This document shows positions 9,816 through 57,317 of a stretch of DNA of 64,000 bases, piece by piece. Below the pieces are notes generated by a model, which was given only the letters and a program-made list of their open reading frames with translations, made no database searches and was not told the origin of the DNA. Source of the DNA: Clostridia bacterium (lineage in GTDB: Bacteria; Bacillota; Clostridia; Oscillospirales; CAG-272); the NCBI GenBank assembly GCA_017462545.1, contig JAFTQX010000001.1:2380-66379 (forward strand). Direction: 5' to 3'. A program made the position numbers and the translations under genes. Numbering within the stretch: position 1 is the first letter of the stretch; every line of letters begins with the position of its first letter.

Positions 9816-12800
9816 ATGAAAAAGCGTATGTTGTCCCTACTCCTTGCGCTTTGCATGCTGCTTACCAGCGTACCGCTCCTGGTACTGCCGGTCGTGGCAA
9901 CAGAGGCAGAGGAGAATAACGTGACCGTTACCTTCCGCACAGCGGACGGTACCGTTGTCTGCACGCGTGAGCACCCTGCAGGCTACATGTGGCTCAAGGC
10001 CCCTACGGAGGCCGAGATGACTGCTGCAGGTCTGACCGAGGACGAGATCGGTGAGATCCTTGGCTGGTTCTACATGGCGCCTGATGGCAAGTATTATGAC
10101 ATCAGCGCGTTTACCAGCATCTATTTGGAGAAGGATATCATCATCTCCCCCTTCACCAAGACATCGACCCTGCACCGTACCGGCAAGCTTTCTTGGCCGC
10201 TGTACACCGTGCCGGCAGATGCCGCTGCGGGTGATATTCTGCCTCTTGATTGTTGGCAGGGCGGCTTTACAATGGGCTACGCCAACCGTAACGATCTGCT
10301 GAACACCTATACCCTGTACGATGAGGTGCAGCTCTATTCGTTGACGGGTACTCATCTGCTACGGTATGCCGAGCAGTGGACAGAGGGTGGCTTATATTTG
10401 CTTGACAGCCAGGGCTTTGTTATGCCGAACCTGACGGATAAGGATAAAAACACCGTCATTGCCTGGAATGCGCTTGTCAGCGGTACAGTCAATATTTCTG
10501 TGGATATTCCCGCGTCGCATGCCCCTGCCTTTATCGTTGTCAAGAACGACAAGATCGTATATCCCGCATCGACCGATGAAGTGACCGTTTCTGCCGATGA
10601 CCGTACCACCTGGGCTGCCAAGACCGATACCTCTACCGCGTGGGATGATAAGGCACTGCTGGAGGCGCTAACCGTGACCGCCGGTGACCAGATCCGCTTT
10701 ATTCTGTCGCGGCGCGACGGCGGTACCAGCACGACCGGCTTCTGGCCTACCATCACCTATACAAGCGATCTCTCCACCCCCACCTTCTCGGATGAGATCC
10801 TGTACGGTGGTACCACCTCTTTTGATAAGAATTTCCCTACATACGATAAGACCAACGATGTGGTCACCTGGAACGGTGGCTGGCAGCTCGTGTACTATCC
10901 CGGCATCAGTGATATCGCAGGCGGCAAGGCCCAGCTTCTCGAAAAGGGCATGAATCTGGATGGTGCCAACAATGCACTCTCTATTTCTGACAACGATGAT
11001 AAGGGGCTTGGTGATGTCAGCGTGCTTGCCGCCGTAACATCGAACAGCGGCTGGGGCGGTAATGATAAGTTTGCTTTTGCTATCAAGAACAACGTGGTAG
11101 CCGGCTACCGCTATATCTCTGACCGGACGGGTACGCTTTCCATTGATTTTACTACCCTCGGCCGTATCGGCACGATGAACGTAAAAGCAGCGGATGTCAG
11201 CTTCGCTATTTACGTGGACGGCGTGAAGGTCTGGCCTGTCAGCACAACAGAGCAGGATGCGGATATCAACGCAAACGGCTGGTATTCGCTTGGCGAACTG
11301 ACGGCAAGTCAGAAAAAGATCGTGACAGACGATGCCAATGCAACCGACGTGGCTGCGCGCCGCGGTATCAAGGTCAACAAGGGCAGCCGCGTAGAGATTC
11401 TGTGTACCAATAGCGGCGGCAGCATTTATGCCGGAGCCGGCCTTACCATGTTTGCCGACCTGACCTACGAAAAGGCGGCTGATTTGGTAACCTCCTTCAA
11501 CGAAAACAAGCCTACCTACGATAAGACCAACGATATCGTCACCTGGAACGGCGGCTGGTCACTCGTTCACTACAACCATGTAGATGCCATTGCCGGCGGC
11601 GAGGCAGACTTCCTCACCAAGGGCATGCATATCAATAATGATAGAGACTCGCTGACGATCCCCGCCAATGCGGGTACCTCGTCAGATAATCCCAGTACCA
11701 TCCTGGCAACGGCCGGCATTTCGGCAAGCTCCTGGTCCTATGGCTCGTATACTTACAGCATCTCGGCCGCAAAGGGACACGTGGGCGGCTACCGCTACAC
11801 AACAGAGGCAACCGGTTTTATCGATATTGATTTCACCAAGCTGGGACACTTCTGTGATATGGCCTCCTCCGACACCATGGTTTACGCGATTTACGTAGAC
11901 GGCCAAAAGGTTTGGCCCACAGGTGACGCTTGGTATGGCCGCGCCGGCGGTAACGGCACGATCGACGTGACCGCGGCCGCGAACGCGACCGATGAGGCCG
12001 CCCGCCGTAACATCTTTGTACGCAAGGGCAGCCGCGTAGAGTTCCTCTGCACCAGCACCGATACCTCCAAAACCATTTGGGGTACCGCCGGCAACCTGAT
12101 GTATGCCGATATTACCATGAACACGGTTGACCCGCAGCTTTCGGTAGCCGGTACGGTAGGCAGCGCCTTTGCCATGAACCTGACGGTTGGCAACCGCGCC
12201 TCCTATAAGGATCTTACCGTGAAGATCAACGGCGAGAAGATCACCCCCGCAAACGGCATCTATACCCTTGCCGGCATTGCCGCCAAGGATATGAAAAAGG
12301 CCATCACCTATGAGGTGACCGGTAAGGTCTACGGTGTAGATGTTACGATCGCCAAGGGCGAGACCACCTTTGCCGATTACCTGACCGCATTGACCAAAAA
12401 CACCGCATTGGCAACCAATATTCGCATGCTGGCACAGGCTACGCTCAGCTACGGCGAGGCTGCTGAAAAGTACTTTACAAATGGTAGCCTGAATGCCACC
12501 GAGCAAGCTCTGATTGCGAACGCACCGAGCACGAACGGCACGATGAACATTGTAAAAAATGCCGATCAAAGCGCGAATAAGTTCGAATTCTACGGCGTCT
12601 CTCTTTTGCTCAATGACGAGATCGATATCAAGCTGTACGTGGATGCCCTGACCGAGCAGGCCTCGCTTGACGGCTATACCATCCGCGTGACGAGCAACAA
12701 GGTAAACGGCAACGGCTGGACTTTGCAGCCGCGTGGAGACGTTAACGACAATTGGCACTTCAAGTCGATTATCAACGGTATCCCCGCTTCGGCATACGGC

Positions 12801-15800
12801 TCTGATCTTTCCATCACCGTGATGGAGGGCGAGACTGCCGTGAGCGACACGCTCGTATACAGCGTAGACGCGTATATTGCCCGTATGTACAGCACCCGCA
12901 CCGATCTGGAAAAGAATCTGCTGCACGCCATTGCTACGATGGGTGATGCCGCAGGCGGCGCGCATATCCATGTATACGGCGAATGGATGCTGGGTGAGGT
13001 AGACGGGGATAACAATCAGACCGAATACCGCATCTGTACCCTGTGCGAGCATAGGGATGAGCGTCTTTGCGAAGAGATTGAGATCGTTTATCAAGACACC
13101 TACACCTTTGCAAGCCCTGTTCTCTCGATCGAGAAGGAGATCGTTACCTCTACCGATCTGCTGACCGGCGCAGCAGACAGCCACGTGCTGATCAAGTCGG
13201 CAGAGAACGAGATCTATGCTACCGGTACCGGCAGCGCGTTGGTCAAGACCGCAGACGGCTACGTTATGGTGACGGTTTCTGCCGCCCCCATCAACATGCT
13301 CTTCCTCTCCGGTCAGTCGAATGCCGAGGGTGCTTCTGCTGCCGGTGCAACCCCCAATGAAAATAATAAGTACGATTATGCGGATTACGGCAAGTACTTC
13401 CTGCGTTCGCCCGATCGCATGGCGTATTACACCTACACCTACCACAGCCTGGATATTACGGCCGAGGAGAGCACCGGTCGTACCCCTGCTTCCTACGTTG
13501 TTAAGTCTCTGAAATGGGGCGATAACACCCGTTACAGCAGCGTTTCGAGCGGCCCCAGCGTGACTACCCTGTGCGATGAAGGCAGTACCTTTGCCTCCGC
13601 CGGTGTCGGTGCCGCGCTGACGGCAGAATGGATCAAGCAGACCGGTGAGCGTGTTTGGCTGGTCAACTCCGCCCACGGCGGTCACCCCATTCAGAACTTC
13701 TTGCCCCTCGGCTCGGAGGGCGTTGGTGATGTGCCTGTAGAGCGCTACAACGACTACGAGCAGGCAGTTGCCGTCTTCGGTCTTGCCATGCAAACGCTGG
13801 AGAATGAGATCAAGGCCGGCCACTTTACGCTCAGCCACATGGCCTTCTACTGGTTCCAGGGTGAGAGCGACAGCTCCTCGAACGACCTCTACTACCTTGA
13901 GCAGTTTGATCGTGTATACAGCGAGCTGCAGAAGGATGTACAGCTTGACGGTAAGAGCTTCGACTTCGGCGGTCTGTTTACCCTGCGCTCCTGCAAGGAT
14001 AACAGCGGCAACTCCGAGGCCGAGCTGTATATGACCGGCCCGCGTATCGCGCAGTATGAGATCGGCGCGGATAACAGCACCGAGAACGCCTACTCCAATG
14101 TGTATGTTGTTACCAATGCAACCGAGCAATGGACCTCTACCGATGCGGATGTCAAGCAGTATTTCTTGGATATCTACGGCTCGGAGGAGAACTTTAAGTC
14201 CATCTTCGGCTACGATATCCCCGATACCCGCGCCATGATGCACCCCAACATTCACTACGCGATCTACGGTCAGAATGAGATGGGTATTGATGCGGCCAGA
14301 AACTCGCTGCTGATCATGAATCAGCTTGGTCTTACCAACTACGATCTTTCCTATGCCGTGCAGGATGCCAAGACCGAGATCCGCCTGCTGAACGTGGACG
14401 GTTATACCGATCTCACCGAGATCTCGATTGACGTGACCAAGAATGTTGGCTACGTCATTCCGCAGATCACCCCGATCTACCGTGTGGCACAGGGTGTGAC
14501 GCTGGTCTCCGAGACCGACGGTTACGTATTTGACCAGTTCCGCGTGGGCGTAGATAAGACCTATGAGGGCAACCTGGCAGACCAGATCACCTTCTCGGTT
14601 TACCTCGGCGGCGTTTGGCTGCAGCGCTACGACATGCCCATCAAGATCGTTTCCTCCATCCTGCTGGATAGCGACGTGACCTACGCGCAGTACGGCGGCG
14701 ACCTGGCCGAGAACCCGGAAAGAGAGACCAAGATCTACTCTGAGGGCAGTTGGGCTCGCGGCTGGATCGATTATGCCGATGGCTCGCTTCACCTCTTTGA
14801 TTACTACAATACCGAAAACGGCTGGTACTATTCGACCGGTGACGTGCTGTGGGGCAACCCCTTCCACGGCGCGTATTCCTCGCAGGGGCTGGCTCTGAGC
14901 GGTGCAGCCGGTAGCGGCGCGGCGGTATATTGGACTGCTGAGATCGGTGGCACGGTCACTCCCTTCTTTGACAACCTCGACACCAACCTGGGTGACGTCA
15001 ATATTGCGATCATGGTCAACGGTTATGTGGTATGGCCGGAGACGGCATCTCGCCTGAACTACGACGAGCACAGTGGTTGGTATCACGCCTATAATGGCGA
15101 CGCCGAGGGCGAGACCAAGACAACGACGGCCACCATCAACGAGGCCCTTGCCGATTGTAAGATCAAGGTCAACGCAGGAGATGAGATCGCCTTTGTGTTT
15201 GAACGTGTATCCAGCGTGTGCAATATGACGGCATTGCCCGGCCTGCAGTACCTGACCGGCGAGGTGACCGATGCGATCACCGTTCCCACCACCCCCTATT
15301 CTGCGCCTGTAGAGACGGTTACCTTTACCACAAGCGGCTTTGACCCTGTCAATAATACCACCCCGTGGGATTTCGGCTATCTGACCTACGCCACCAACAC
15401 CTTCAAGGAGTTTACCGTTATAGATGGCAACGGTTGGCTGCATGAGGAAGGCGAGAGCATGTGGGATAGTGATTGGCACGGTGCATTTTGGCAGAGCAGC
15501 TCGTATTCGATAGCTGTCAGCGGAAATAAAGGTGAGGACGCTGCCATTCGCTACACCGTGGAGAAGGACGGCATCATCGTGCCGCAGCTTGGAACATTGA
15601 GCGGAACGGGCACGGATACGTATTTTGCCATTTATGTCAGAAAGGCGAACGGCAATTATGTGCCTGTATTCCCGAGTACCGATACCGGTATCGACGGGAA
15701 TGGCTGGTACACGATCTATGATGGAACAGGCGAGGGAGAAACGGCTACCACCGCTGCGATGATGAATATCCTGTTGGATGACATCAGCATTGAGGTAGAG

Positions 15801-15899
15801 GCCGGTGATGAAATTCTGTTCCTCTTTGCAAAGCTGGGCAACCAGAATACCTACATCAAGTGCTATCCCTCCATCGTTTATACCACCATAAAGGAGTGA
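9816..15899 (+). CDS. Giant secreted multi-repeat protein with an internal sialate-O-acetylesterase (SASA/GQSN)-type domain
   Basis: 2027 aa. Sec signal MKKRMLSLLLALCMLLTSVPLLVLPVVATEAEE; SD GAGAGGA 7 nt upstream. Five unassigned ~90-aa modules (core FAIYVDGxKVWP) at ~10450-10720, 11095-11410, 11780-12055, 14915-15205 and 15538-15830. Esterase domain ~13285-14330 (GQSNAEG 13311-13331, WFQGESD 13851-13871). No LPXTG, SLH or dockerin seen. Confidence 0.9.
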   Translation: MKKRMLSLLLALCMLLTSVPLLVLPVVATEAEENNVTVTFRTADGTVVCTREHPAGYMWLKAPTEAEMTAAGLTEDEIGEILGWFYMAPDGKYYDISAFTSIYLEKDIIISPFTKTSTLHRTGKLSWPLYTVPADAAAGDILPLDCWQGGFTMGYANRNDLLNTYTLYDEVQLYSLTGTHLLRYAEQWTEGGLYLLDSQGFVMPNLTDKDKNTVIAWNALVSGTVNISVDIPASHAPAFIVVKNDKIVYPASTDEVTVSADDRTTWAAKTDTSTAWDDKALLEALTVTAGDQIRFILSRRDGGTSTTGFWPTITYTSDLSTPTFSDEILYGGTTSFDKNFPTYDKTNDVVTWNGGWQLVYYPGISDIAGGKAQLLEKGMNLDGANNALSISDNDDKGLGDVSVLAAVTSNSGWGGNDKFAFAIKNNVVAGYRYISDRTGTLSIDFTTLGRIGTMNVKAADVSFAIYVDGVKVWPVSTTEQDADINANGWYSLGELTASQKKIVTDDANATDVAARRGIKVNKGSRVEILCTNSGGSIYAGAGLTMFADLTYEKAADLVTSFNENKPTYDKTNDIVTWNGGWSLVHYNHVDAIAGGEADFLTKGMHINNDRDSLTIPANAGTSSDNPSTILATAGISASSWSYGSYTYSISAAKGHVGGYRYTTEATGFIDIDFTKLGHFCDMASSDTMVYAIYVDGQKVWPTGDAWYGRAGGNGTIDVTAAANATDEAARRNIFVRKGSRVEFLCTSTDTSKTIWGTAGNLMYADITMNTVDPQLSVAGTVGSAFAMNLTVGNRASYKDLTVKINGEKITPANGIYTLAGIAAKDMKKAITYEVTGKVYGVDVTIAKGETTFADYLTALTKNTALATNIRMLAQATLSYGEAAEKYFTNGSLNATEQALIANAPSTNGTMNIVKNADQSANKFEFYGVSLLLNDEIDIKLYVDALTEQASLDGYTIRVTSNKVNGNGWTLQPRGDVNDNWHFKSIINGIPASAYGSDLSITVMEGETAVSDTLVYSVDAYIARMYSTRTDLEKNLLHAIATMGDAAGGAHIHVYGEWMLGEVDGDNNQTEYRICTLCEHRDERLCEEIEIVYQDTYTFASPVLSIEKEIVTSTDLLTGAADSHVLIKSAENEIYATGTGSALVKTADGYVMVTVSAAPINMLFLSGQSNAEGASAAGATPNENNKYDYADYGKYFLRSPDRMAYYTYTYHSLDITAEESTGRTPASYVVKSLKWGDNTRYSSVSSGPSVTTLCDEGSTFASAGVGAALTAEWIKQTGERVWLVNSAHGGHPIQNFLPLGSEGVGDVPVERYNDYEQAVAVFGLAMQTLENEIKAGHFTLSHMAFYWFQGESDSSSNDLYYLEQFDRVYSELQKDVQLDGKSFDFGGLFTLRSCKDNSGNSEAELYMTGPRIAQYEIGADNSTENAYSNVYVVTNATEQWTSTDADVKQYFLDIYGSEENFKSIFGYDIPDTRAMMHPNIHYAIYGQNEMGIDAARNSLLIMNQLGLTNYDLSYAVQDAKTEIRLLNVDGYTDLTEISIDVTKNVGYVIPQITPIYRVAQGVTLVSETDGYVFDQFRVGVDKTYEGNLADQITFSVYLGGVWLQRYDMPIKIVSSILLDSDVTYAQYGGDLAENPERETKIYSEGSWARGWIDYADGSLHLFDYYNTENGWYYSTGDVLWGNPFHGAYSSQGLALSGAAGSGAAVYWTAEIGGTVTPFFDNLDTNLGDVNIAIMVNGYVVWPETASRLNYDEHSGWYHAYNGDAEGETKTTTATINEALADCKIKVNAGDEIAFVFERVSSVCNMTALPGLQYLTGEVTDAITVPTTPYSAPVETVTFTTSGFDPVNNTTPWDFGYLTYATNTFKEFTVIDGNGWLHEEGESMWDSDWHGAFWQSSSYSIAVSGNKGEDAAIRYTVEKDGIIVPQLGTLSGTGTDTYFAIYVRKANGNYVPVFPSTDTGIDGNGWYTIYDGTGEGETATTAAMMNILLDDISIEVEAGDEILFLFAKLGNQNTYIKCYPSIVYTTIKE

Positions 15900-15904
15900 T
15901 CGAT

Positions 15905-16021
15905 ATGAAACCATACGAAACCCCCACATGGCAGCTGATTGCGCTCTCGTCCGACCTGTTGATGGCATCGGATGAGAACGAGCTTGCCATTGATAAGCTT
16001 TCTTCGATCTTTGATTTCTGA
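15905..16021 (+). CDS. 38-aa micro-protein coupled to giant gene 1 (MKPYETPTWQLIALSSDLLMASDENELAIDKLSSIFDF)
   Basis: SD AAGGAG at 15891-15896, ATG 15905, TGA 16019-16021, then a terminator. Residues 17-38 are identical to the ORF at 40134-40250, with 10 synonymous and 0 nonsynonymous differences. Confidence 0.75.
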   Translation: MKPYETPTWQLIALSSDLLMASDENELAIDKLSSIFDF

Positions 16022-16040
16022 TTAGAAAGCAACACAAAAA

Positions 16041-16079
16041 ACAAGCCGATATGGGAAATCCCATATCGGCTTGTTTTTT
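16041..16079. terminator. Bidirectional intrinsic terminator
   Basis: ACAAGCCGATATGGG-AAAT-CCCATATCGGCTTGT with an A-run before and TTTTT after. It lies between the convergent micro-ORF and MFS gene. Confidence 0.8.
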
Positions 16080-16085
16080 GCTTGC

Positions 16086-17396
16086 TTATGAACGCTTTTC
16101 GTTTTTCATCAACAGCAGCAGAGGAATGACGGCAGGCACAGCCACGATCGCGGCAGCCAGAAAAATGTTGTAGGTCGGCATAAAGTCGGCACCGTTGATG
16201 CCCATGGCATCCAGACCGATGCACAGGGAGATGATCGGGCCTACGATCATGGGAATCAGTACGGTAAAGCACATCCGCACCCCTTGAAAGCGGCCGGTGT
16301 AGCCTGTTGGGATGTAGTCCTGGAAGGCCGCCGTCAGCGCACCGCTGAGCGAAAGCAGGCCGCCCATCATCAGCACGCCGCCGCCAAAAAGCAGGATCGA
16401 AAAGAGCGTGCCCTCCACATATTGCAGTGAAAAGAAGGCAAGAATACCAAGCACCGCCGACAGCAGCAGCGGCAGGTAAAAGCGTGCACGTCCAAATCGG
16501 TCAAACAGCACGCCCATGACCCCGGTGAAGATGGCCGCGCCGGGAATGATGACCGCCATAGGTACGACAAAGCCATCACCAAAGCCGAGCGTCTTGATGA
16601 CAAAATTCATCAGGTAGGAGAAAAAGGTCTGCTGCGAGATGCCTACCAAGGCAGCACCGGCAAGACATACATACATCAGGCGGTTTTCTCGAATCACAGA
16701 GGGGCGAAAGCCGTAAAAGGTCTCACGGGCGGTGGTGGCACTCTTTTCAATGGTTTTGGCATCACGGAAAAACAAGAACGCCAGCAGCCCCGCCACGATC
16801 GGAATGATGCCCAGGGTGATAAAGAAGGCGGCATTGCTTTGGTTTTCTGTGCTGTACAGCGGGCCGATCAGCAAAAAGACCAGCACGACCGAAAGAACCG
16901 GCAGGGTAGAGAGAATGGCGTTCAGCTTGCCGCGGTTGGTCTTGTCGGTGTTGTCGGCTACCCAGGCATTGAAGGCGGCATCGTTGGCGGTAGAGCCGGC
17001 AAAGGTCATCAGGCAGTCAAAGACGACCAAGGCCGTGGCAACCATTGCCAGCATCGAGCTCTCTGCCCGCATGGGCAACAGGGCAAACAGCATGATGGTC
17101 GCGCCCCAAGCAAGATAGCCGTAGGCAACAAATGGCTTGCGTTTTCCCACACGGTCGCATAGTCCCCCTGCCCACACGGTGGTGGCTGTGGCCGTCAGCG
17201 CAGAGCAGATCACCATCAGCGTGGTGACGATGTAGGAAAGATCGTGCCGTCCGGAGGCGGCAAAAATGTCTTGCGAGAGCGTGGCGAAATACATGTTTTC
17301 CACCACCCATGCGATCTGCCCTACCAGCCCAAAAAAGAGGGCAGAGAGCCATACGCGTCCCCCAAGCGGGGTTTGGTGATTTTTCTTGTTGTGCAT
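16086..17396 (-). CDS. MFS transporter (sugar/glycoside-type)
   Basis: Start moved to ATG 17396 (GGAGG 7 nt upstream). 436 aa, about 12 TM. Confidence 0.8.
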   Translation of the reverse strand: MHNKKNHQTPLGGRVWLSALFFGLVGQIAWVVENMYFATLSQDIFAASGRHDLSYIVTTLMVICSALTATATTVWAGGLCDRVGKRKPFVAYGYLAWGATIMLFALLPMRAESSMLAMVATALVVFDCLMTFAGSTANDAAFNAWVADNTDKTNRGKLNAILSTLPVLSVVLVFLLIGPLYSTENQSNAAFFITLGIIPIVAGLLAFLFFRDAKTIEKSATTARETFYGFRPSVIRENRLMYVCLAGAALVGISQQTFFSYLMNFVIKTLGFGDGFVVPMAVIIPGAAIFTGVMGVLFDRFGRARFYLPLLLSAVLGILAFFSLQYVEGTLFSILLFGGGVLMMGGLLSLSGALTAAFQDYIPTGYTGRFQGVRMCFTVLIPMIVGPIISLCIGLDAMGINGADFMPTYNIFLAAAIVAVPAVIPLLLLMKNEKRS

Positions 17397-17398
17397 AG

Positions 17399-19913: not shown

Positions 19914-19990
19914 GGAGGCATAGCTCAGTTGGTTAGAGTACTTGCTTGACATGCAAGGGGTCACTGGTTCGAGTCCAGTTGTCTCCACCA
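19914..19990 (+). tRNA. tRNA-Val (anticodon GAC)
   Basis: 77 nt. Acceptor GGAGGCA/TGTCTCC, D-arm GCTCAGTTGGTTAGAGT, anticodon loop TTGACAT, T-arm ACTGGTTCGAGTCCAGT, encoded CCA. Confidence 0.9.
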
Positions 19991-34026: not shown

Positions 34027-37000
34027 ATGAAAAAACGCATTCTCTCGTTGATTCTCGTGTTGTGCATGCTGCTGCCGATGGTGCCTACCACCCTCTTCGC
34101 GGCAGAGGCAGAGCCCATCGTGTATCAATATGCCGATGTGTACGGGAATTTTAACAAAACAATCTCCGAGACAGTTGCCAACGAGCAGGGACTTGCCGTT
34201 GACAAATATGAGGAGTGGCTGCGTCAAGCAGGCATTTTCGCGATTGACCAGGGCAATTATGACTGGAAGGTGGGTGACTTTGACCCGACCACCGGTGCCT
34301 TGGATCCCTTTGCGCGTGTGGCCTTTTTTGCCAATGACAATAAGACGACCTATAGGCATGATACTACCTGGGCCGTCACCGAGTCGGCATACCAGAAGAT
34401 GGTTGGCGATTACATGACCAGCTACAAGGCAAACGGTAACAAGTACGGTTCTGCCGACATCTGGGGCGGCTATGCGCTCTGCGGGCAGAACAGTTTTACC
34501 GGTCTGACCGCTTCAGGGAGCGGTGGCAAGTATTCTGCCATTGCCTACACAGTCGAGCAAGATGGTGCCTATACCTTCTCTCTTTCTTCGCTGAATGAGA
34601 CGGGTGGCCATACCTTTGCCATCTTTGTGGGCAGCGAGCCTGTTTGGCCTGCCGGTGCAACCGGAACCAAGACTTCTACCTGGTATGCCACCACGAAGGG
34701 CATGAGCATGAATACCGTTAACGCTGCTATGGCAGAGATGGAGGCGGTGAGCGTGCGGAAGGGGCAGACGATTTCTTTCGTCGTTTCTATCGGCACAAGC
34801 GGCAACCCGATGTACGTAGAGCCTGTCGTTACCCGTGTGGGTGACTATGTAGAAAAGCCGGAGATCTTTAAGTACAGCGATGCTGCCGGCAAGTTTACCA
34901 AAACGATCTCCGAGAGCAAGTGTGGCGCAACCGACGCCAACCTGGAGGACGGTTCTTATCTTGCATGGCTGCAGCAGGAGGGCATCTTTGCTGTGAACCA
35001 GGGCAACGCGCCTTGGAAGATCGGTGAGTTGAATCTGACCACCGGCGAACTCGCTCCTTTCTCCCGCGTAGCCTTCTTTGCGGATGATAATGATGATACT
35101 TCTGCTCACAATACTGCGTGGCTCGTCACCGAGGAGACCTATCAGCGTCTCTTACCCGGTTACATCAGCAGCCTGCAGAAGAACACGGGCGGCTTGTACT
35201 ACGGCAGCTCCAGCATTTGGAATGGCGAAGCCCTTTGCGGTATGAGCAGCTTCTATAAGATGGCATCCTCCTCTGCTACCAAGTATTCTGCCATGCAGTT
35301 TACCGCACCGGCAGACGGTGGCTATGCCTTCTCTTTGGCTACCTATTCCAATACCGATTCTCATTATTTCGCCGTGATGGTTGATAACACGGTGGTCTGG
35401 CCGACCGACGCCAAGGCAGACGATAAAACGACCTGGTACGTGGTTACATCCAGTACTACGGCGGCCGAGATCAATGCCGCGCTGTCCGCACTGCCGCTGC
35501 AGCAGCTTTCTGCCGGTCAGACCGTCTCTTATGTAATTGGTAAAAAAGACAAGTCGGATGCCCGTATTGATCTGGCTCCGGTTGTTTCCTACGTGCCGGA
35601 TGGATACGTGTGCATCAATTTGATCGATGAAACGCTCGGCACCTCCAAGACGGTATATCCCGCAATCGGCTCCTCCCTCAAGCTCCCCTATTATGTGGAC
35701 ATCATCGGTTGGGATACGAACGGTGACGGCGAGGTGGATTACCTCAACGGTGCCACCGTGGTCGTTCCCGCTACCGGCGGTAGCTGGAAGGCCGTTTATC
35801 CGCCCACTACCGTATTCAAGAAGGGTGAGAATCACCCGACGTGGGACGCCGAAAATAATAAGGTCGTTTTCTATGACAACTGGGACATTGGCGTCTACAA
35901 TAAGGCGCTCAACGTGTTTATGCCCGTGTACACCTCCAACGGCACCTTCCTGATCAGCGTAGCGGGCGGCCCGTGGAGCGGCAAGGGCTGTGGTCTTTAC
36001 ATGACCAATGATACAACCTCTCCGCACTACGGTCAGATGGCCGTTACCGGCTCGCTTTCAGAGAATAATTATCGCCACTCTATCCGCTATACCGCGCCCT
36101 ACAGCGGCAAGGTGGAGCTGAGCTGGGAGAGCTTTACCGGTATTCGTGAGGTGAATCCCAATGAGGCGGCCTCCAAGATCATCTTTGGCTTTGCCATTTA
36201 TAAGAATGGCGAAAAGATCTGGCCTACCTCCGAGGATTGGAAAATGTATGAAAGCGAAACCACCTATGATGTTGGTGTAGGCGGATCCTTGGATATCGGC
36301 GCGCTGATGGAGGCCGAGGGCATCTTCCCGATCACGGCTGACGTCAACGAGGGCGATCGCATCGAGTTCCGTACCCTGCAGGGCTCCGGTACGGTTTACA
36401 TGATGAAGTCCTCGCCGATGGTTTCTTATCAGTCGGTTACCACCGATTACTATGAGGATACCGTAGGCGGCAGCTCTTATAACCAGGGCGCCGGTATGTA
36501 CTGTATGGATGTTGATGCCCAGACGGGTAAGGTCATCATGCCGGCAGGCTGGTCCTTTGTCGGCTATAAGAATACCGGCTACGGTGTTGACCCGCTGGTG
36601 CTGGATACGCTGGTTGTCGCTTGTGAAGCAGGCACAGCATATACCTACGAGGAAGGCGTGGATATTTATAGCAGATGGGGCGACTCCTGGATCGTAGCTG
36701 CCTCCCGCGTAGGGAAACCCGCCGGTGGTCGTGGCGGTTATCCGGCGATCAACTGGGTGAGCGGTGTAGATGCCCGTTGGGATTACTGGGGCGGTCGCGG
36801 TTGTGTGGTGTCTAACAGCACCTACGATGCCGGCTATCAGTACACCGTTTCAAAGACCGGTTACGTCAATATTTCGATCGATAAGCTGGAGACTCGTGGT
36901 AGCCAAAACCGCTATGCCGCCATCTTTGTAGACGGCGTGATGGTATGGCCTACCGCTGGCGGCAGCTATACAAATAGTGCCGATTGGTGCAACCTGCAGA

Positions 37001-40000
37001 CCTATAAGACGGCAGGCAACACAAGCCGTGAGGATATTGCCCCCAAGCTGGGCGACCTCAGCTATCTGCGTGGCATCTACGTAGAGGCCGGCGATAAGGT
37101 GGAAATGCTCTTCCGTAATACAAGCGAAGGCCATACCGCCCGCGCCTACCTGACGGTAGAGGAGGTTGCGGTTCGTGATACCGCCTCCTATGTTGCCATC
37201 AAGGATGGCGTTGCGCGCATGTATCCCGCTTTGGCCGGTACGACCTTTACCGTACCCACCCACATGGCTCTTGACGGCTTTGGCGGTTGGGATGCAGACG
37301 GCAACGGCAAGCCCGATCTTGCCAACGGCGGCACGGTTCTCGTGGGTGCCAAGCCTACCGTGCTGACTCCCGTTTATAACGATGGCAGCGCTGATCGCTT
37401 TGATCAGAATCTCCCCTATACCTATGACGGTACGACCGTTACCGGCTATGATACCACCAACACCAACTGGCAGATCACCAAGGGTGACTGGAATGTCGAT
37501 TTTGTTGCCAACCCTGATACCAAGCTCACACTCAGCGGCCTGCGTGAGATGAGCAAGCTTTCAAGCGGTATCTTCCAGTATGACGGTGAGGGGCTGTGGG
37601 GCGCAAATGGCGGCGGTATGTATTCTTATCGTAAGTTTGCCGTGCGCGGCTCTGATTCCAAGATCGCCGTTGGTGCCACCTATGTAGCCCCCTACAGCGG
37701 CGTGGTCGACCTCGATTATACCAATGTTGCCGGCCGTTGGGAGATCAATGCCAATGACGGACACGAATATGTGACCGTTGACGGCGTGAAGTATTATGCC
37801 TATTACACAGCCAAGACCGATACGTCTACTGATTATTATTACTTTAAGGATAGAGTAGCGTATTCCCGTACCTTGTCTGAGGGCGGTGCGTACTATGCTT
37901 ATGACGGTACCACCATGACCGAAAAGACTGCCACCGCAGCCGATGCCGGTACAAAGAATGAAGTTTACATGTCTTATCAAACTGGTGCTTACTTTGCCAT
38001 CGTGCTCAACGGTGAGGTGATCTGGCCCTCAAACGGCAAGCCCTTCCACTATCAGAGTGATGACAAGAACAGCCCGTTCAGCCAGTCTGGCGGTGATGAT
38101 ACTGCCCTTGCCAAGATGCGTGCCTATGAGGCGTTCCCCACCAACCTGTATGTCAAGGCAGGGGATAAGATCTCCTTTGTTGCGACTCGCGATCACTGGC
38201 TCTCCAACATGGTATATATGGATCCCGTTGTTACCTATACGGCTGTGTATGAAAAGGTAGAGACCTCTGCCTCTGTCAGCCTTGGGGATAAGTTTGCGGT
38301 TGACTTCATCGCAAGCAATCGTGATCCTCGCGCTACCAAATACGGCGTGGAGATCATCTCCGGTATCTCGGAGGGCATCGTTGCCAAGAACCTTGATGCC
38401 GAGATCACCTACCGTCCCTATCAGATCATTGATGGCACGACCATCTATTTCGCAGAAAAGACCACCAGCCTTGCCGCGATCCTTTCCCTGTATGCCAACG
38501 ATACCACCGGTATAGTTACGGCAGACCAAAAGGCACTGGCCGAGGCACTGCTCCGCTATGGCGCAACGGCTGACAGCTACTTCAACGGGACACCTCTCTC
38601 CGCTGAGGATCTGGCAGCTCTTGCCGGTGTATCGGTGGATACCAGCAAGGAGGCGCAGGAGGTTGGTGCAACGCTTGACCCGAGCGTGACCGAGCGTACC
38701 TATGAGATGACGGCTGTTAAGCTGCTGCTGGAGGACGCCGTTGAGATCAAGGTCTTCTTTAAGGCGCTTTCGGGCGAGGCAGTTACTGATCTTTCGAGCT
38801 TCAAGCTGCTCGTTGCCAACGAATACGGCGTGACCAAGGCACTGGTTGATAGTGGCTTTGTCTACCGTGCGGGCACGGGTGAAAAGGAGATTGGCGCCAG
38901 CTTCTCTGTCCCCGCTACCGAATATAACGAGACACTGTACATCACCCTGCTTTCGGGTAACGCCATGGTCAGCGAGACGCGCACATACAGCGTCAAGACC
39001 TACATTGCCCGTAAATTTGGAACCGAAGAGGGAACCATGGATAACATTCTTCGCGCCATTACCGATGTGGCGAACAAGGCAAGCAAGATTCGCACGCAGA
39101 TTGTCGCTGCTACCGATACCACGACCTATAAGTACTGCGGCACCTGGGAGCCGAGCGGCACGAGCATGATCTCGCATTGGAACGAGTCTTACGTGGAGGT
39201 AGACTTCTATGGCACGAGTGTCACGCCCGTGTTTGGGAAGTCTTCGCCCATCAAGTATTCGATCGATGGCGGCAGCTACACCTCCACTACCGCAAACGGT
39301 GAATTGACCATCACGGCAGCGACCGATGGCAAGCACACCCTGCGCATCAAGACGCAGGGGCGCGGCAGTAACGTCTATTTTGCCGGTGTCAAGACCGAAT
39401 CCAAGCTGCTGCTCTCCCGTACAGCAGAGAAGGAGCATTATATCCACTTTATCGGTGACTCGATCTCGGATGATGGCAACAGCTTCTCTCGCCGCGTGGG
39501 CGATGTTCTCGGTTGGGACTACGCCACCACCGCCGTTGCCGGCATGGCGCTGGAGACCAACTACGGCTATTGGAAGAACAATAACCCTGCCATGTACGCA
39601 GAGCTGGGTATTAATGTCGGTATGGAGGATGCCTTCTTCAAGTACGGTCACCCGACCGATTCTTGGACCGGTGAAACAAGAGCGAAGTACCTCAACTACT
39701 ATACCGATTCCTCTCTCAACAATACCTACGAGACAGGCTATGCGCCGGATATCGTCTTTATCTTCCTTGGCACGAATGATGAGCTGGGTAAGGATACCGA
39801 TGCAACCCGCTTCACCGAGGCGTATGTGCAGTTTGTAGAAAATATTCTGGCCGTTTACGGTGCGGATACCGAGATCTGGGCATTGCAGGCACTCACCAAC
39901 TCGCAACCTACCATCAATGAAGCGTCCCCGCGTTTCACCTGCATCCGTGCCGCCGCAAACGCGCTCAAGGCCAAGTATGGTGATCAGATCAACTTCATTG

Positions 40001-40137
40001 ATTATGATGTTATCAAGACCTGGGGTGTGCAGATCAGCTCGGATAATACCCATCCCACGTTAGCCGGCTACAACACACTGACCAATGAGATCTCGGCGAT
40101 TCTTAAGGCATTTTATGAGGGGAAGGAGGAGGAATGA
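34027..40137 (+). CDS. Giant secreted multi-repeat protein with a C-terminal SGNH/GDSL esterase domain (paralog of 9816-15899)
   Basis: Start moved to ATG 34027 (signal MKKRILSLILVLCMLLPMVPTTLFAAEAE); 2036 aa. Five modules (FAIFVGSEPVWP, FAVMVDNTVVWP, FAIYKNGEKIWP, AAIFVDGVMVWP, FAIVLNGEVIWP) at ~34530-34790, 35284-35541, 36075-36380, 36829-37117 and 37669-38190. SGNH domain ~39430-40125 (GDS 39454-39462, GTND, DNTH). Confidence 0.9.
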   Translation: MKKRILSLILVLCMLLPMVPTTLFAAEAEPIVYQYADVYGNFNKTISETVANEQGLAVDKYEEWLRQAGIFAIDQGNYDWKVGDFDPTTGALDPFARVAFFANDNKTTYRHDTTWAVTESAYQKMVGDYMTSYKANGNKYGSADIWGGYALCGQNSFTGLTASGSGGKYSAIAYTVEQDGAYTFSLSSLNETGGHTFAIFVGSEPVWPAGATGTKTSTWYATTKGMSMNTVNAAMAEMEAVSVRKGQTISFVVSIGTSGNPMYVEPVVTRVGDYVEKPEIFKYSDAAGKFTKTISESKCGATDANLEDGSYLAWLQQEGIFAVNQGNAPWKIGELNLTTGELAPFSRVAFFADDNDDTSAHNTAWLVTEETYQRLLPGYISSLQKNTGGLYYGSSSIWNGEALCGMSSFYKMASSSATKYSAMQFTAPADGGYAFSLATYSNTDSHYFAVMVDNTVVWPTDAKADDKTTWYVVTSSTTAAEINAALSALPLQQLSAGQTVSYVIGKKDKSDARIDLAPVVSYVPDGYVCINLIDETLGTSKTVYPAIGSSLKLPYYVDIIGWDTNGDGEVDYLNGATVVVPATGGSWKAVYPPTTVFKKGENHPTWDAENNKVVFYDNWDIGVYNKALNVFMPVYTSNGTFLISVAGGPWSGKGCGLYMTNDTTSPHYGQMAVTGSLSENNYRHSIRYTAPYSGKVELSWESFTGIREVNPNEAASKIIFGFAIYKNGEKIWPTSEDWKMYESETTYDVGVGGSLDIGALMEAEGIFPITADVNEGDRIEFRTLQGSGTVYMMKSSPMVSYQSVTTDYYEDTVGGSSYNQGAGMYCMDVDAQTGKVIMPAGWSFVGYKNTGYGVDPLVLDTLVVACEAGTAYTYEEGVDIYSRWGDSWIVAASRVGKPAGGRGGYPAINWVSGVDARWDYWGGRGCVVSNSTYDAGYQYTVSKTGYVNISIDKLETRGSQNRYAAIFVDGVMVWPTAGGSYTNSADWCNLQTYKTAGNTSREDIAPKLGDLSYLRGIYVEAGDKVEMLFRNTSEGHTARAYLTVEEVAVRDTASYVAIKDGVARMYPALAGTTFTVPTHMALDGFGGWDADGNGKPDLANGGTVLVGAKPTVLTPVYNDGSADRFDQNLPYTYDGTTVTGYDTTNTNWQITKGDWNVDFVANPDTKLTLSGLREMSKLSSGIFQYDGEGLWGANGGGMYSYRKFAVRGSDSKIAVGATYVAPYSGVVDLDYTNVAGRWEINANDGHEYVTVDGVKYYAYYTAKTDTSTDYYYFKDRVAYSRTLSEGGAYYAYDGTTMTEKTATAADAGTKNEVYMSYQTGAYFAIVLNGEVIWPSNGKPFHYQSDDKNSPFSQSGGDDTALAKMRAYEAFPTNLYVKAGDKISFVATRDHWLSNMVYMDPVVTYTAVYEKVETSASVSLGDKFAVDFIASNRDPRATKYGVEIISGISEGIVAKNLDAEITYRPYQIIDGTTIYFAEKTTSLAAILSLYANDTTGIVTADQKALAEALLRYGATADSYFNGTPLSAEDLAALAGVSVDTSKEAQEVGATLDPSVTERTYEMTAVKLLLEDAVEIKVFFKALSGEAVTDLSSFKLLVANEYGVTKALVDSGFVYRAGTGEKEIGASFSVPATEYNETLYITLLSGNAMVSETRTYSVKTYIARKFGTEEGTMDNILRAITDVANKASKIRTQIVAATDTTTYKYCGTWEPSGTSMISHWNESYVEVDFYGTSVTPVFGKSSPIKYSIDGGSYTSTTANGELTITAATDGKHTLRIKTQGRGSNVYFAGVKTESKLLLSRTAEKEHYIHFIGDSISDDGNSFSRRVGDVLGWDYATTAVAGMALETNYGYWKNNNPAMYAELGINVGMEDAFFKYGHPTDSWTGETRAKYLNYYTDSSLNNTYETGYAPDIVFIFLGTNDELGKDTDATRFTEAYVQFVENILAVYGADTEIWALQALTNSQPTINEASPRFTCIRAAANALKAKYGDQINFIDYDVIKTWGVQISSDNTHPTLAGYNTLTNEISAILKAFYEGKEEE

Positions 40138-40250
40138 TGACCTACGAAGCACCGCTTTGTGAGATTCTCATTTTCCCCGCAGACCTTCTGATGGCCTCGG
40201 ATGAAAATGAGCTGGCTATTGATAAGCTCTCCTCTATCTTTGATTTCTAA
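40134..40250 (+). CDS. 38-aa micro-protein coupled to giant gene 2 (MMTYEAPLCEILIFPADLLMASDENELAIDKLSSIFDF)
   Basis: ATG 40134 overlaps the TGA of the giant gene (ATGA), with SD GGAAGGAGGAGG just upstream. TAA at 40248-40250, then a terminator. Paralog of 15905-16021. Confidence 0.75.
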   Translation: MMTYEAPLCEILIFPADLLMASDENELAIDKLSSIFDF

Positions 40251-40260
40251 AGATAACGAA

Positions 40261-40288
40261 AGGCCGCCCGAATCGGGCGGCCTTTTTA
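40261..40288. terminator. Bidirectional intrinsic terminator
   Basis: AGGCCGCCCG-AAT-CGGGCGGCCT followed by TTTTT, between the convergent micro-ORF and GH35 gene. Confidence 0.8.
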
Positions 40289-40297
40289 CTTGCCGTT

Positions 40298-42427
40298 TTA
40301 TATGGTATCAACTGCCACGGTATGGCGCAAGATCACGCGTGCGTCGTTCAGGCGGCAGCCCTTTGCCCGCTTGATGTCAAAGTAGCGGGGCGTTTCATCG
40401 TCGGTCAGTACCAGACGAAGAGAAACTGGGTTGCCGAGCATCGCAAGCGAGGGGCAGTAGGGAAGACCGGTGGTGATCCAGTCAGAGACCAAAAGCCCAT
40501 CCTCATCGTACAAATAGGCCTTATCACCCGTGTAGTCGATGAGCAGCATATGCTCGCCATCCTCGGAGTAGACAGGGGTCAGCAGATAGCTGCCGTCTGC
40601 CTGCTGCGCAACGGTGCAGCTGCCGCTGTATTCGCCGCTCTCGGCCTCTAAATACAGCACAGTCGGCTCGCCGCTTGCACCGTAAATGGTCACGCGGGTA
40701 TCCTTTACGATCTCGGCGTAAACGGTGCCCTCCTTCTCGTAGAGCGCACAGTCGGCAATGTACAGCTTATCACCAAAGCGATAGGCATGGCGCGAGTCCT
40801 TCTCCGAGAGGGTAATGATGTCGGGCAGGCTGGCCAGCGTGTCGCAGCCGCTGCTTGCAAATTCATAGATCGGCAGATCATCGGTGTAGAAGAAGTACCG
40901 GTTGCCGATGGCGGTCAGCGGGGTGGCGTTGGTGCGCTTTAAGATGGCCTTGCCAAGCGGCAGGTTGTAGGGCAGAATGTAGGTGTCGCCATCCTTGATG
41001 TCAAGCGGCAGGGTGTGAATGGTTTCGCCCGGCAGGCAAAGCTCCATGGAAAACTGCGGGTGCTCACGCAGCGTGCGCTTGCGCAGATAGTTGTTGATAA
41101 AGACAAAGCCGCAGCCGCTTTCGCTTTCGTGCCGCACAGAAAGGCGGATCGTCTCGCAGTCGCCTGCCTCCTTACAGCTGAAGGGCGGGATGTAGGTGTA
41201 GGAGCGCGCGATGATCTCTCCCCAGGTGTGCAAAAAGAGATGAAGACGGCGGGTCAGACCGTAGCTTTCACGCGGCATGCCCCATTCGCCAAGCGGGGCT
41301 TGGAAATCGTAAGAGCGAACGGGCAGGTCGTTCGGGTAGCCGGTATCGCGGCTTTCCTGCATGGTGGTCAGGCGGCCGATGGGATTGGTGCCGCCGTGGT
41401 ACATATAATAGCCAAGCAGGTTCGCGCCGGAGCCCAATTTGCAGAGACTTAGCGAGGCAATATCCTTGCCATAAGCTACCACACGACGGTGATCGGTAGG
41501 CTGCATGCCGCCACCCAGCTCGGCCGTCAGGTAGGGGTAGCGTTTTACGTCACAGGTGTATTCAAATTTTTGGGCAGATGACGAGCCGTCCTGCAGGTCA
41601 GAGCCAATGTTGGGGTCGTTCAGGGCGGGCTGCAGCGTAAAGCCGGGGTTTTCGGGCAGCTCGTTGATATGCTCGGCCCACGGGGCATCGCAGTAGCCGC
41701 CAAACATGGGCAGGGCCTCATTATCCGGTACGGCCGCGCCGCCCCAGCCGGTGGCGGTATAAATCGGCACGCGCAGGCCGTGCTCCAGCAGCATCTTCTT
41801 CAAGGTCAGCATGTGGCGCATGCGGCTGGGGGTGTCCGGCTCGCAGCGGTAGTATTCGTTCTCGATCTGAATGGCCACCACAGGACCGCCCTGCTCCCAC
41901 AAGAGCCCCTTGGTATGTGCGGCGATCTTCTCAAAATACTTGTCCACATAACCAAGATAGCGGGGATTGTTGGAGCGGAGCTTGTTACCGGTAACGCCGA
42001 GAACAGCATCCTTGTCCCCCTCGTCACGCAGCCAGTCCGGCAGACCGCCGTTGCGGCATTCGCCGTGTGCCCAAGGGCCAACGCGCAGGCAAACGTACAG
42101 TCCGTGCTTGCCGCAAAGCTCCACAAAGCGGCGCAGGTCGCAGTTGCCTTCAAAATTCCAAACGCCTTCTTCTTCCTCATGGTGGATCCAGAAAATATAG
42201 GAGGCAATGATCTCTACTCCGCCTGCCTTCATTTTTAAGATTTCGCGCTCCCACTCCTCGCAGGAATAGCGGGAAAAGTGAAATTCGCCCATGATCGGGT
42301 ACCAGGGCTTGTCGTTTTTCAAAAAATAGTGGTTGTTGACCGAAATGGTATCGCCGTTTGGTGCCTTTCCGTAAAAGGGCAGCGTCTCAAGGGCAACCTG
42401 CTTCGGCGTCATTTCAAAATGATACAT
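40298..42427 (-). CDS. Beta-galactosidase, glycoside hydrolase family 35
   Basis: 709 aa with GEFHFSRY, GPWAHGECRNGGLPDWL and IQIENEY blocks. No signal peptide. Confidence 0.85.
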   Translation of the reverse strand: MYHFEMTPKQVALETLPFYGKAPNGDTISVNNHYFLKNDKPWYPIMGEFHFSRYSCEEWEREILKMKAGGVEIIASYIFWIHHEEEEGVWNFEGNCDLRRFVELCGKHGLYVCLRVGPWAHGECRNGGLPDWLRDEGDKDAVLGVTGNKLRSNNPRYLGYVDKYFEKIAAHTKGLLWEQGGPVVAIQIENEYYRCEPDTPSRMRHMLTLKKMLLEHGLRVPIYTATGWGGAAVPDNEALPMFGGYCDAPWAEHINELPENPGFTLQPALNDPNIGSDLQDGSSSAQKFEYTCDVKRYPYLTAELGGGMQPTDHRRVVAYGKDIASLSLCKLGSGANLLGYYMYHGGTNPIGRLTTMQESRDTGYPNDLPVRSYDFQAPLGEWGMPRESYGLTRRLHLFLHTWGEIIARSYTYIPPFSCKEAGDCETIRLSVRHESESGCGFVFINNYLRKRTLREHPQFSMELCLPGETIHTLPLDIKDGDTYILPYNLPLGKAILKRTNATPLTAIGNRYFFYTDDLPIYEFASSGCDTLASLPDIITLSEKDSRHAYRFGDKLYIADCALYEKEGTVYAEIVKDTRVTIYGASGEPTVLYLEAESGEYSGSCTVAQQADGSYLLTPVYSEDGEHMLLIDYTGDKAYLYDEDGLLVSDWITTGLPYCPSLAMLGNPVSLRLVLTDDETPRYFDIKRAKGCRLNDARVILRHTVAVDTI

Positions 42428-54323: not shown

Positions 54324-54400
54324 TGGTGGGCCATCGGGGACTCGAACCCAGGACCAACCGGTTATGAGCCGGTAGCTCTAACCAACTGAGCTAATGGCCC
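54324..54400 (-). tRNA. tRNA with CAT anticodon (elongator Met or lysidine-type Ile2)
   Basis: 77 nt. Acceptor GGGCCAT/ATGGCCC, D-arm GCTCAGTTGGTTAGAGC, anticodon arm ACCGG-CTCATAA-CCGGT, T-loop TTCGAGT (one T-C mismatch in the T-stem), encoded CCA. Confidence 0.85.
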
Positions 54401-54524
54401 GCTTGCGCGGTGCGCCTATATAGCGCAACGCTTATTATAGCAGAGATATATGAACAAAAAATGTATATATCGTGAAAACAATATGAACGACTGCGTTTGG
54501 GGCAGGGAAAAAGAGAAAAAGATA

Positions 54525-54553
54525 TTGACACTCCCCCTCAAAGGTGTTATAAT
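54525..54553 (+). promoter_or_regulatory. Promoter of alaS
   Basis: TTGACA 54525-54530, 17-nt spacer, TATAAT 54548-54553. Confidence 0.7.
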
Positions 54554-54590
54554 ATAATGTAATTTTATGCGTTCCGGAGGAATGAAAGCT

Positions 54591-57215: not shown

Positions 57216-57224
57216 CAGAGAATA

Positions 57225-57260
57225 AAGAGGGCAAGTGCCATCGGCACTTGCCCTCTTTTC
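57225..57260 (+). terminator. Intrinsic terminator of alaS
   Basis: AAGAGGGCAAGTGCC-ATC-GGCACTTGCCCTCTT followed by TTC. Confidence 0.8.
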
Positions 57261-57262
57261 TA

Positions 57263-57317
57263 TCATGCTTATCCGTTTTTGCGGAGCGCGAGTGGCTTTT
57301 TTCAAAAAGCCACTCGC
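57263..57317 (-). repeat. Palindromic gene-3'-end element, type 2, copy E (reverse orientation)
   Basis: GCGAGTGGCTTTTTTCAAAAAGCCACTCGC at 57288-57317. The reverse complement aligns with copy D, including CGCGCTCCGCAAAAA. It starts 10 nt past the stop of the minus-strand gene 57327-57569. Confidence 0.7.

Follow-up and report, generated by a model that had tools for sequence, protein, structure and literature searches.

Class I type III secretion chaperones are small (~15 kDa), acidic (isoelectric point, pI, ~4), cytoplasmic proteins rich in amphipathic helices; their genes lie beside the substrate genes, and many chaperone-substrate pairs occur per genome. The lipase-specific foldase (Lif) and the staphostatin/Spi partners are encoded directly downstream of a secreted hydrolase gene, from whose stop codon their start codon is often separated by little or overlaps with it, and are needed for the upstream product or guard against it. 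Lif is a membrane-anchored protein of ~340 aa that acts outside the cytoplasm, and staphostatins are ~105-aa β-barrels directed at one protease each. An arrangement of this kind is described here in a 64,000-nucleotide stretch of DNA (the window) from a Clostridia bacterium of the Oscillospirales lineage CAG-272 (GenBank assembly GCA_017462545.1, contig JAFTQX010000001.1, positions 2,380 to 66,379 of the forward strand), in which a 38-codon micro-open reading frame (micro-ORF) stands directly behind each of two giant genes. The comparisons below, all made on sequences, establish the region 40134 (or 40137) to 40250 behind the second giant gene as an independently initiated, translated gene of an acidic micro-protein of predicted cytoplasmic type. 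They also establish that in gut Clostridia this micro-protein gene is placed directly 3' of paralogous genes for large, predicted Sec-type secreted proteins, in the same inferred transcript and before its terminator.

Like the type III secretion chaperones, the micro-protein is small, acidic, predicted to be helical and of cytoplasmic type, and its gene lies beside a secreted protein gene, with many such pairs per genome. In contrast, it has only 4 kDa, shows no relation to them in sequence or fold, and would serve clients with Sec-type signal peptides; to our knowledge, the carrier Clostridia have no type III system. The position directly downstream of a secreted-protein gene is shared with Lif and staphostatin/Spi; unlike Lif and the staphostatins, however, the same 38-aa micro-protein occurs behind giants that have different catalytic domains or none. 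The second window copy also resembles translationally coupled gene pairs with ATGA or TGATG overlaps, having both the overlap and a Shine-Dalgarno (SD) sequence inside the upstream gene, but the overlap is not conserved, gaps at other junctions are 4-26 nt and the starts are unstructured, which makes coupling a local detail. The arrangement is thus rated as one of a known kind, a dedicated small partner gene behind a secreted-protein gene, that appears to be built on a new protein family.

Micro-ORF copy 2 (MMTYEAPLCEILIFPADLLMASDENELAIDKLSSIFDF; 40134..40250, plus strand) comprises 38 codons followed by TAA 40248-40250, and its family membership follows from homolog searches. Its ATG 40134-40136 overlaps the TGA 40135-40137 of giant gene 2 (ATGA), and its SD region, GGAAGGAGGAGG at 40121..40132 on the plus strand, lies within the last codons of the giant gene. 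The overlap, the preceding GGAAGGAGGAGG and the length of 38 codons had all been given in the original prediction and were borne out when the sequence was re-read. An alternative start, ATG 40137 on the plus strand, gives 37 aa and a 1-nt overlap (TGATG). It stands 7 nt from the AGGAGG core, a better spacing than at ATG 40134, and the ortholog in locus L004 starts with M-K-Y-E-A-P (37 aa), matching this shorter form; as a candidate start, ATG 40137 is at least as good as ATG 40134. The start region shows no significant RNA structure (z = +0.5). The reading frame of copy 2 is closed by TGA 40116-40118, only 15 nt 5' of the ATG, and a search of the junction for an X-XXY-YYZ slippery heptamer found none. 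A bidirectional intrinsic terminator hairpin (40258..40286; -24.7 kcal/mol, z = -4.4) follows 7 nt past the micro-ORF stop and is common to copy 2 and a convergent GH35 glycosidase gene (40298-42427, minus strand).

Micro-ORF copy 1 (MKPYETPTWQLIALSSDLLMASDENELAIDKLSSIFDF; 15905..16021, plus strand) likewise has 38 codons plus a TGA. It starts 5 nt past the stop 15897-15899 of giant gene 1, its SD sequence AAGGAG (15891..15896, plus strand) is situated in the last two codons of that gene, and its start region is not significantly structured (z = -1.15). A bidirectional terminator hairpin (16035..16080; -40.4 kcal/mol, z = -11.2) is found 13 nt past its stop and is shared with a convergent MFS transporter gene (16086-17444, minus strand), so that the terminators which had been expected behind both micro-ORFs are indeed present. 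The two copies match far above chance (tblastn within the window, E = 6e-14), and no third copy was detected by tblastn in the 64-kb window.

The last 22 residues are identical in the two window copies, and their codons show 11 synonymous and 0 nonsynonymous differences, as against 11 nonsynonymous differences in the first 16 codons. Since half of the identical codons differ synonymously, the identity is held at the protein level and does not come from recent duplication or gene conversion; that source was rejected on the 11 synonymous differences among the 22 identical codons. When 13 distinct DNA copies, taken from the window and from other loci, are compared over codons 17-38, 6 first, 3 second and 19 third codon positions are variable. 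A conserved RNA element in place of a peptide was rejected as well, given this third-position variation, the unstructured start regions and an Rfam scan of both loci that returned no RNA family. The substitution pattern marks the micro-ORF as a genuine coding gene on which purifying selection acts strongly. The earlier view that the micro-ORF itself is the conserved coding unit, and not the tail of a duplicated gene end, is upheld by the synonymous differences in the last 22 codons, by the third-position variation and by free-standing homologs.

These homologs were obtained from a search of 5.8 billion proteins, which yielded 28 close relatives (E 5e-21 to 5e-14) of 37-45 aa, save one 64-aa protein (P0003) called from an upstream alternative start; those with labels are named only 'hypothetical protein'. 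An exhaustive profile search of 1.84 billion representatives gave 26 matches, of which 25 are real and all 31-80-aa micro-proteins; the other, P0045 (4941 aa), is a plant TAXi-domain protein and was rejected as spurious. Every one of the 28 close and ~60 more distant homologs is free-standing and 31-80 aa long. The family pattern, into which both window copies fit, is M-K-x-Y-x-x-P, 9-10 hydrophobic residues, D-h-h-M-A-S-D-E-N-E and an acidic amphipathic tail, over a total of 35-56 aa. In the wider family, the N-terminal 26 residues are the conserved part and the acidic amphipathic tail varies by subfamily, with LAIDKLSSIFDF and TDKDYVDNENLVVDNIxxI as examples. More distant sister families, including MKKIYERPxxEALEVxxEDIITLSYMLPEMPID..., MKFEQPKLTVIEFDVTDILTAS... 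and others, are found in metagenome-assembled genomes (MAGs) of Lachnospiraceae, Acutalibacteraceae and Ruminococcus.

The window peptides have no match in Pfam, NCBIfam or PHROGs at E <= 10. When 25 family members were scanned against the same collections, only isolated matches appeared (E 0.037-0.33), at chance level for 25 queries; the LEPR-XLL match (E = 0.037, in one of the 25 queries) was rejected on this ground. A profile search of the PDB with the family gave no match at E <= 10. The narrow family is present in at least five uncultured gut Clostridia/Eubacteriales MAGs of a species-level genome collection, from human and ruminant gut, a lower bound limited by the search pattern; none of the carriers is cultured, each being a MAG or a metagenome contig. 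In one MAG, 8 or more intact copies were counted. By these searches, the micro-protein superfamily is without annotation and is a new protein family. Microbiome catalogues (Sberro et al., bioRxiv 10.1101/494179; GMSC, PMC11364881) are described as listing thousands of small-protein families without domain annotation. The present family resembles their entries in being conserved in the gut microbiome, in its length of <= 50 aa and in its lack of a domain annotation. No description of the family or of its pairing with giant secreted proteins was found in the literature, where full-text searches for sequence strings gave irrelevant matches only. The main text of the human-microbiome survey (10.1101/494179) mentions no such neighbourhood, the supplementary tables of the catalogues lying outside this search.

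The junctions between large gene and micro-ORF were surveyed at ~35 places, drawn from the window, from five MAGs found through the micro-ORF, from further MAGs found through a shared-domain search and from metagenome contigs, with counts that depend on pattern and hidden Markov model scans of the fetched loci. In this set, the micro-ORF starts -4 to +26 nt from the stop of a large ORF (850 to ~2500 aa), each junction has its own GGAGG-type SD sequence and a terminator downstream, and the neighbourhoods are otherwise unrelated. In locus L001, the upstream paralog is kept only as a 141-aa C-terminal fragment. The distance from micro-ORF stop to terminator hairpin ranges from ~7 to 55 nt. The original prediction had stressed that both window copies lie at the same frame offset relative to their giants and had proposed a survey of homologous junctions. 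Both offsets are 2, as calculated, but the agreement carries no meaning, because offsets 0, 1 and 2 are all present among homologous junctions; behind the direct ortholog of giant 1 (76% identity), the gap is 4 nt and the offset 1, where the window has a 5-nt gap and offset 2. By this survey, the two window copies agree in offset by coincidence, for which the chance is one in three. The occurrence of all three offsets among homologous junctions also excludes a frameshift or read-through fusion, and the region emerges as a free-standing ORF, not a frameshifted extension.

Translational coupling, a further element of the original prediction, stands in part. The stop/start overlap with the SD sequence inside the upstream gene is real at copy 2, but it occurs only there, the other junctions having gaps of 4-26 nt, each with an SD sequence. 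As the start regions are also unsequestered and two solo copies exist, strict coupling is not a feature of the family; a fixed stoichiometry with the giant protein may at most be inferred. As a separate observation, six of the nine micro-ORFs in the TDKDYV-tail subfamily (L006, L026, L029, L030) are in frame (offset 0) with the upstream gene, against an expectation of one third, and stop-codon read-through would yield a fusion at these in-frame copies. This excess may only reflect the shared ancestry of those paralogs.

The giants themselves are related. Giant gene 2 (34027..40137, plus strand) encodes 2036 aa counted from ATG 34027 (the earliest possible start is GTG 34000) and comprises a signal peptide, β-sandwich repeat modules, a shared region and a C-terminal CE2/GDSL-type esterase (residues 1710-1944) related to PDB 2wao. 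Its signal peptide (MKKRILSLILVLCMLLPMVPTTLFA; 34027..34101, plus strand) is typical of the family by paralog comparison, and its shared region (37915..39102, plus strand; ~aa 1297-1692) bears motifs such as LLRYGATADSYF and TYSVKTYIARKF. Giant gene 1 (9816..15899, plus strand; 2027 aa) has a signal peptide, repeat modules, a shared region (11739..12974, plus strand; ~aa 642-1053) and a SASA-type esterase (PF03629, residues 1259-1378). The two giants have the same signal peptide and the shared ~400-aa region, with ~26% identity over the aligned ~390 aa. All partners of the micro-ORF are likewise paralogs of one family with repeated β-sandwich-like modules. The shared region contains the motifs LNYGAAAQxYF and YSVxxY and ends in ...AILALYDAAxAYxA; an AlphaFold2 model of it from a two-sequence alignment is of low confidence (predicted local distance difference test, pLDDT, 55). 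In shorter paralogs this region forms the extreme C-terminus, and in most of the partner paralogs (850-1400 aa) a catalytic domain is not recognisable. Beyond the shared region, giant 1 adds the SASA esterase and repeat modules, and giant 2 adds the CE2/GDSL esterase.

The C-terminal ends of the giants had been called unrelated, and they do differ, giant 2 ending in a GDSL/CE2-like esterase and giant 1 in a non-esterase repeat module; the proteins, however, are paralogs with the same signal peptide and ~400-aa region. From the domain comparison, the difference is one of domains gained or lost between shared region and micro-ORF. Because the giants are paralogous, the conserved unit is the pair of giant-family gene and micro-ORF, inherited together. 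The signal peptides of the paralogs, MKKRxLSLLLxLCMLLxxVPxLVLPxxA followed by acidic residues, are ~53-70% identical, as against ~25% for the rest of the proteins, which suggests that they are recognised by something with a narrower specificity than the general Sec pathway. Within the 64-kb window, the conserved long signal peptide of the giant type is present on the two giants only (9816-9899 and 34027-34101); it also occurs in loci L002, L004, L006, L014, L016, L026, L029, L030, L116 and L117. As a marker of micro-ORF presence it is not strict, and the more divergent signal peptides of two L030 paralogs without a micro-ORF are suggestive only.

A sample free of the bias of searching by micro-ORF was obtained by fetching loci through the shared region of the giants, with a 4-sequence alignment as query (an 11-sequence version was too divergent). 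In it, a recognisable micro-ORF stands behind 8 of the 20 long-architecture paralogs and behind none of the 46 truncated ones; the hypergeometric p of ~2e-5 for this difference is inflated by phylogenetic non-independence. The 46 truncated proteins, mostly from Faecousia and other Oscillospiraceae, end early at a ...VYGYYAKxYF motif. Three apparent exceptions to the pairing (the 768-aa paralog of L002, the first paralog of L030, and L046) were dismissed when divergent micro-ORFs, outside the first search pattern, were found behind each. As to the truncated relatives themselves (L045, L048-L070, L073-L102 and others, mainly Faecousia and other Oscillospiraceae), they represent a large expansion, with >15 loci in one Faecousia MAG. 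Their ...AVYGYYAKxYF end corresponds approximately to the position of LNYGAAAQxYF in the window proteins, and they have neither the distal half of the shared region nor a micro-ORF. Units of large paralog, micro-ORF and terminator occur in tandem at L029 1-7141 (three in a row), L006 2456-8141 and L030 18-9857, and L014 (10001-10444) has a second micro-ORF, MKRYVAPLCEVLVLTSDVLMASNENELVVDTLSDVFVVENIQ, ~200 nt past the first.

The micro-protein has a mass of ~4.3 kDa, a pI of ~4 and a net charge of -5 to -7, with related subfamilies down to -9. Hydropathy analysis reveals neither a membrane span nor a signal peptide, the highest 19-residue Kyte-Doolittle mean being 0.8-1.1. The only hydrophobic stretch holds a conserved Asp17 and a frequent Glu10, and members of the sister families are highly charged there. 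AlphaFold2 with the family alignment predicts two helices, at residues 8-19 and 23-35, with a moderate pLDDT of 68. The two halves of the peptide have different evolutionary patterns. In residues 1-20, the copies cluster according to which class of giant lies upstream, with 73% identity between copies of the same class in different genomes against 47% between different classes in the same genome. Residues 21-38, on the other hand, are nearly invariant, and their few changes (S33G, F38L) follow the genome across paralogs of different classes, so that paralogs in one genome have the same states at residues 33 and 38 (S/F or G/L). The synonymous divergence of paralogs is 6.3 of 18 codons within a genome and 6.5 between genomes, and the Leu38 codon is CTG in some copies of one MAG and TTA in another. 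As the within-genome synonymous divergence equals that between genomes, recent gene conversion is unlikely, and the pattern favours the reading that all copies in a genome track one common partner.

From this genetic linkage and these evolutionary patterns, it appears quite possible, at somewhat less than even confidence, that the micro-protein is a dedicated accessory or adaptor protein for the giant pre-protein. The peptide would stay in the cytoplasm as an escort or adaptor of the giant pre-protein made from the same mRNA, and its translation right after the C-terminus of the giant would bring it next to its client at roughly corresponding levels. The C-terminal helix ASDENELAIDKLSSIFDF, which is almost invariant, may contact one common cellular partner in each genome, such as a part of the machinery for export or quality control, and the variable N-terminal half may contact the cognate giant. 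The stop/start overlap of copy 2 would add translational coupling that is not required in the family. Since purifying selection acts on each of the 8 or more intact copies in one MAG, a single trans-acting dose is unlikely to suffice. A wider and more doubtful proposal is that a class of two-part micro-protein adaptors, so far unrecognised, operates in Gram-positive gut bacteria, with a separate 4-kDa adaptor for every giant exoprotein gene. Its N-terminal half would read the cognate pre-protein and its C-terminal helix would dock on a common machine (translocon, SecA or signal recognition particle, or a quality-control protease), so that giants might be escorted through export or checked for completion. 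As a part of this proposal, the adaptor module would be widespread in Oscillospiraceae and Lachnospiraceae through the sister families MKKIYERP...DIITLSYMLPEMPID and MKFEQPKLTVIEFDVTDILT.

Several observations weigh against an accessory role of the micro-protein. The giants are predicted to be exported and the peptide has no export signal, so that any contact between them is confined to a short pre-export phase. In both window giants, the extra domains stand between the shared region and the micro-ORF. Common descent alone can explain the grouping of the N-terminal half by class, and the genome-tracking signal of the C-terminal half consists of two residues in approximately three lineages; old gene conversion followed by synonymous drift keeps some probability as its source. 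Moreover, the L037 and L038 paralogs, which come from carrier MAGs, have no micro-ORF, and a terminator lies directly past their stop codons. Behind a class-d paralog in L047 (~3090-3150), the stretch LIYEAPLSIYERNEG, which reads ...KGLIYEAPLSIYERNEGAYATKLFY*, resembles the micro-ORF and is a probable decayed remnant; if it is one, the gene can be lost. Two micro-ORFs are solo. The L024 copy (7001-7117) lies 9 nt before a DUF454 membrane-protein gene, itself followed by a DUF4491 membrane-protein gene, with no terminator between the copy and the DUF454 gene, and it is divergent from a LacI-type regulator; the L031 copy (475-627) has its own TTGACA-17-TACAAT promoter and its own terminator. With paralogs that have no micro-ORF, a probable remnant and solo copies, the peptide is not essential for every giant. 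In the loci compared, the pairing is frequent yet not obligatory.

Among the rival explanations, an exported and processed signalling peptide or a precursor resembling ribosomally synthesized and post-translationally modified peptides (RiPPs) is unlikely. In such a system, the N-terminal block (MKxYxxP...D-h-h-M-A-S) would be the leader for a maturation or export system encoded elsewhere in the genome, with the tail as the product by which expression of the giant exoenzymes is reported. The conservation of the N-terminal 26 residues across the superfamily, with tails that differ by subfamily, agrees with this, and the genome-specific C-terminal states would also suit a single receptor. A Y-x-x-P motif followed by a hydrophobic stretch is loosely like leaders bound by a RiPP recognition element (RRE), such as those of lasso peptides, and dispersed RiPP precursors in several copies per genome are known from the prochlorosins. 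The micro-protein shares with lasso-peptide and other RRE-dependent precursors a length of ~40 aa, the M-K-K-x-Y-x-x-P start with its hydrophobic stretch, and several copies per genome. The details depart from the lasso-peptide leader (Y-x-x-P-x-L ... T-x), however, since the P+2 position is variable without Leu and the -2 position is Leu or Ile instead of Thr; a core starting from A21 would place L, A and I at positions 7-9, with no ring-forming Asp or Glu. No RRE, cyclase or protease gene is found nearby, and no gene for a maturation enzyme, a peptidase-type ATP-binding cassette exporter or a receptor is repeatedly present in the flanking 7-10 kb of >10 different contexts. NCBIfam and Pfam models of RiPP precursors have no match, and the AlphaFold2 model has helices and not a strand. 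Inside each subfamily, the tail is not a variable core but the segment of highest conservation; a core rich in Cys, Ser or Thr is absent, as are a signal peptide and a double-glycine motif, and the position behind one specific giant gene family is left unexplained. Quite unlikely is a cytoplasmic antidote or inhibitor that, like staphostatins, Spi and barstar with their secreted enzymes, would keep the giant from doing harm by its activity or from folding too early while it awaits export. The acidic, cytoplasmic-type peptide, the esterase domains of giants 1 and 2, and a gene co-transcribed directly downstream of a secreted enzyme gene, as staphostatin genes likewise are, would fit. On the contrary, most partner paralogs have no recognisable catalytic domain to inhibit, and a near-identical micro-protein beside a CE2/GDSL esterase, a SASA esterase and esterase-less paralogs implies no single active-site specificity.

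It is very unlikely that the micro-ORF is a cis-acting regulatory ORF, whose translation or stalling nascent peptide would control terminator formation or the 3'-end stability of the long mRNA, the free peptide having no role. The ORF does always end shortly before a strong terminator, ~38 codons roughly equal the capacity of the ribosomal exit tunnel, and the C-terminal 22 residues are as extremely conserved as in arrest peptides. But the geometry is not fixed, unlike in arrest peptides of the SecM, MifM and TnaC type: the hairpin stands at variable distances from the stop (~7-55 nt), the tail past the conserved block measures 12 to 30 residues across subfamilies, and the downstream genes in the window are convergent, which leaves read-through with no target. 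The N-terminal MKxYxxP is conserved though far from the peptidyl-transferase centre, solo copies exist, including the L024 copy without a terminator before the membrane-protein gene, and the genome-specific amino acid states point to a trans partner. The reading that the region is translated solely by extending the giant, through a -1 frameshift or read-through, is refuted by the survey of junctions and has practically no probability left. The common offset of the two window copies and the six in-frame copies of the nine in the TDKDYV-tail subfamily could be counted for it; orthologous junctions nevertheless differ in offset, and copy 2 has both the closing TGA 40116-40118 and no slippery heptamer. 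Every copy also has its own start codon and SD sequence, the solo L031 copy even its own promoter, and the database homologs are all free-standing small proteins.

Annotation overlooks most proteins shorter than 50 aa, and a testable context exists for few of them. The present micro-protein superfamily has a very specific genetic partner, namely large secreted multidomain proteins, some of them carbohydrate esterases, of abundant uncultured gut Clostridia, and the pairing supplies a defined protein pair for interaction studies. If the micro-protein serves as an accessory factor in the synthesis or export of proteins of 1000-2500 aa, it would point to an unknown step in the Gram-positive secretion of giant proteins and could matter for expressing such enzymes in other hosts. 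Regardless of function, the pairing is useful in annotation, since it helps to recognise genuine micro-genes and shows where giant genes truly end on their 3' side.

Other features of the window concern antisense ORFs and tRNA genes. Two minus-strand ORFs, 11682-16064 (1460 aa) and 38029-40053 (674 aa), overlap the giant genes, and the first also spans micro-ORF copy 1. By their translations, they look less like real genes than like shadow ORFs of low complexity opposite a coding strand rich in GC and repeats. A region of ~2.8 kb has long ORFs on both strands, 54435-57305 (minus, 956 aa) and 54567-57215 (plus, 882 aa); a Pfam scan of the minus-strand ORF gave no match at E <= 1e-5. Genes for tRNA were identified with Rfam RF00005 at 19914-19987 (plus, 69 bits) and 54327-54400 (minus, 66 bits). 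The first lies between genes for a DinG-type helicase and an EamA transporter, a gene order that is the same in L007 and L018.

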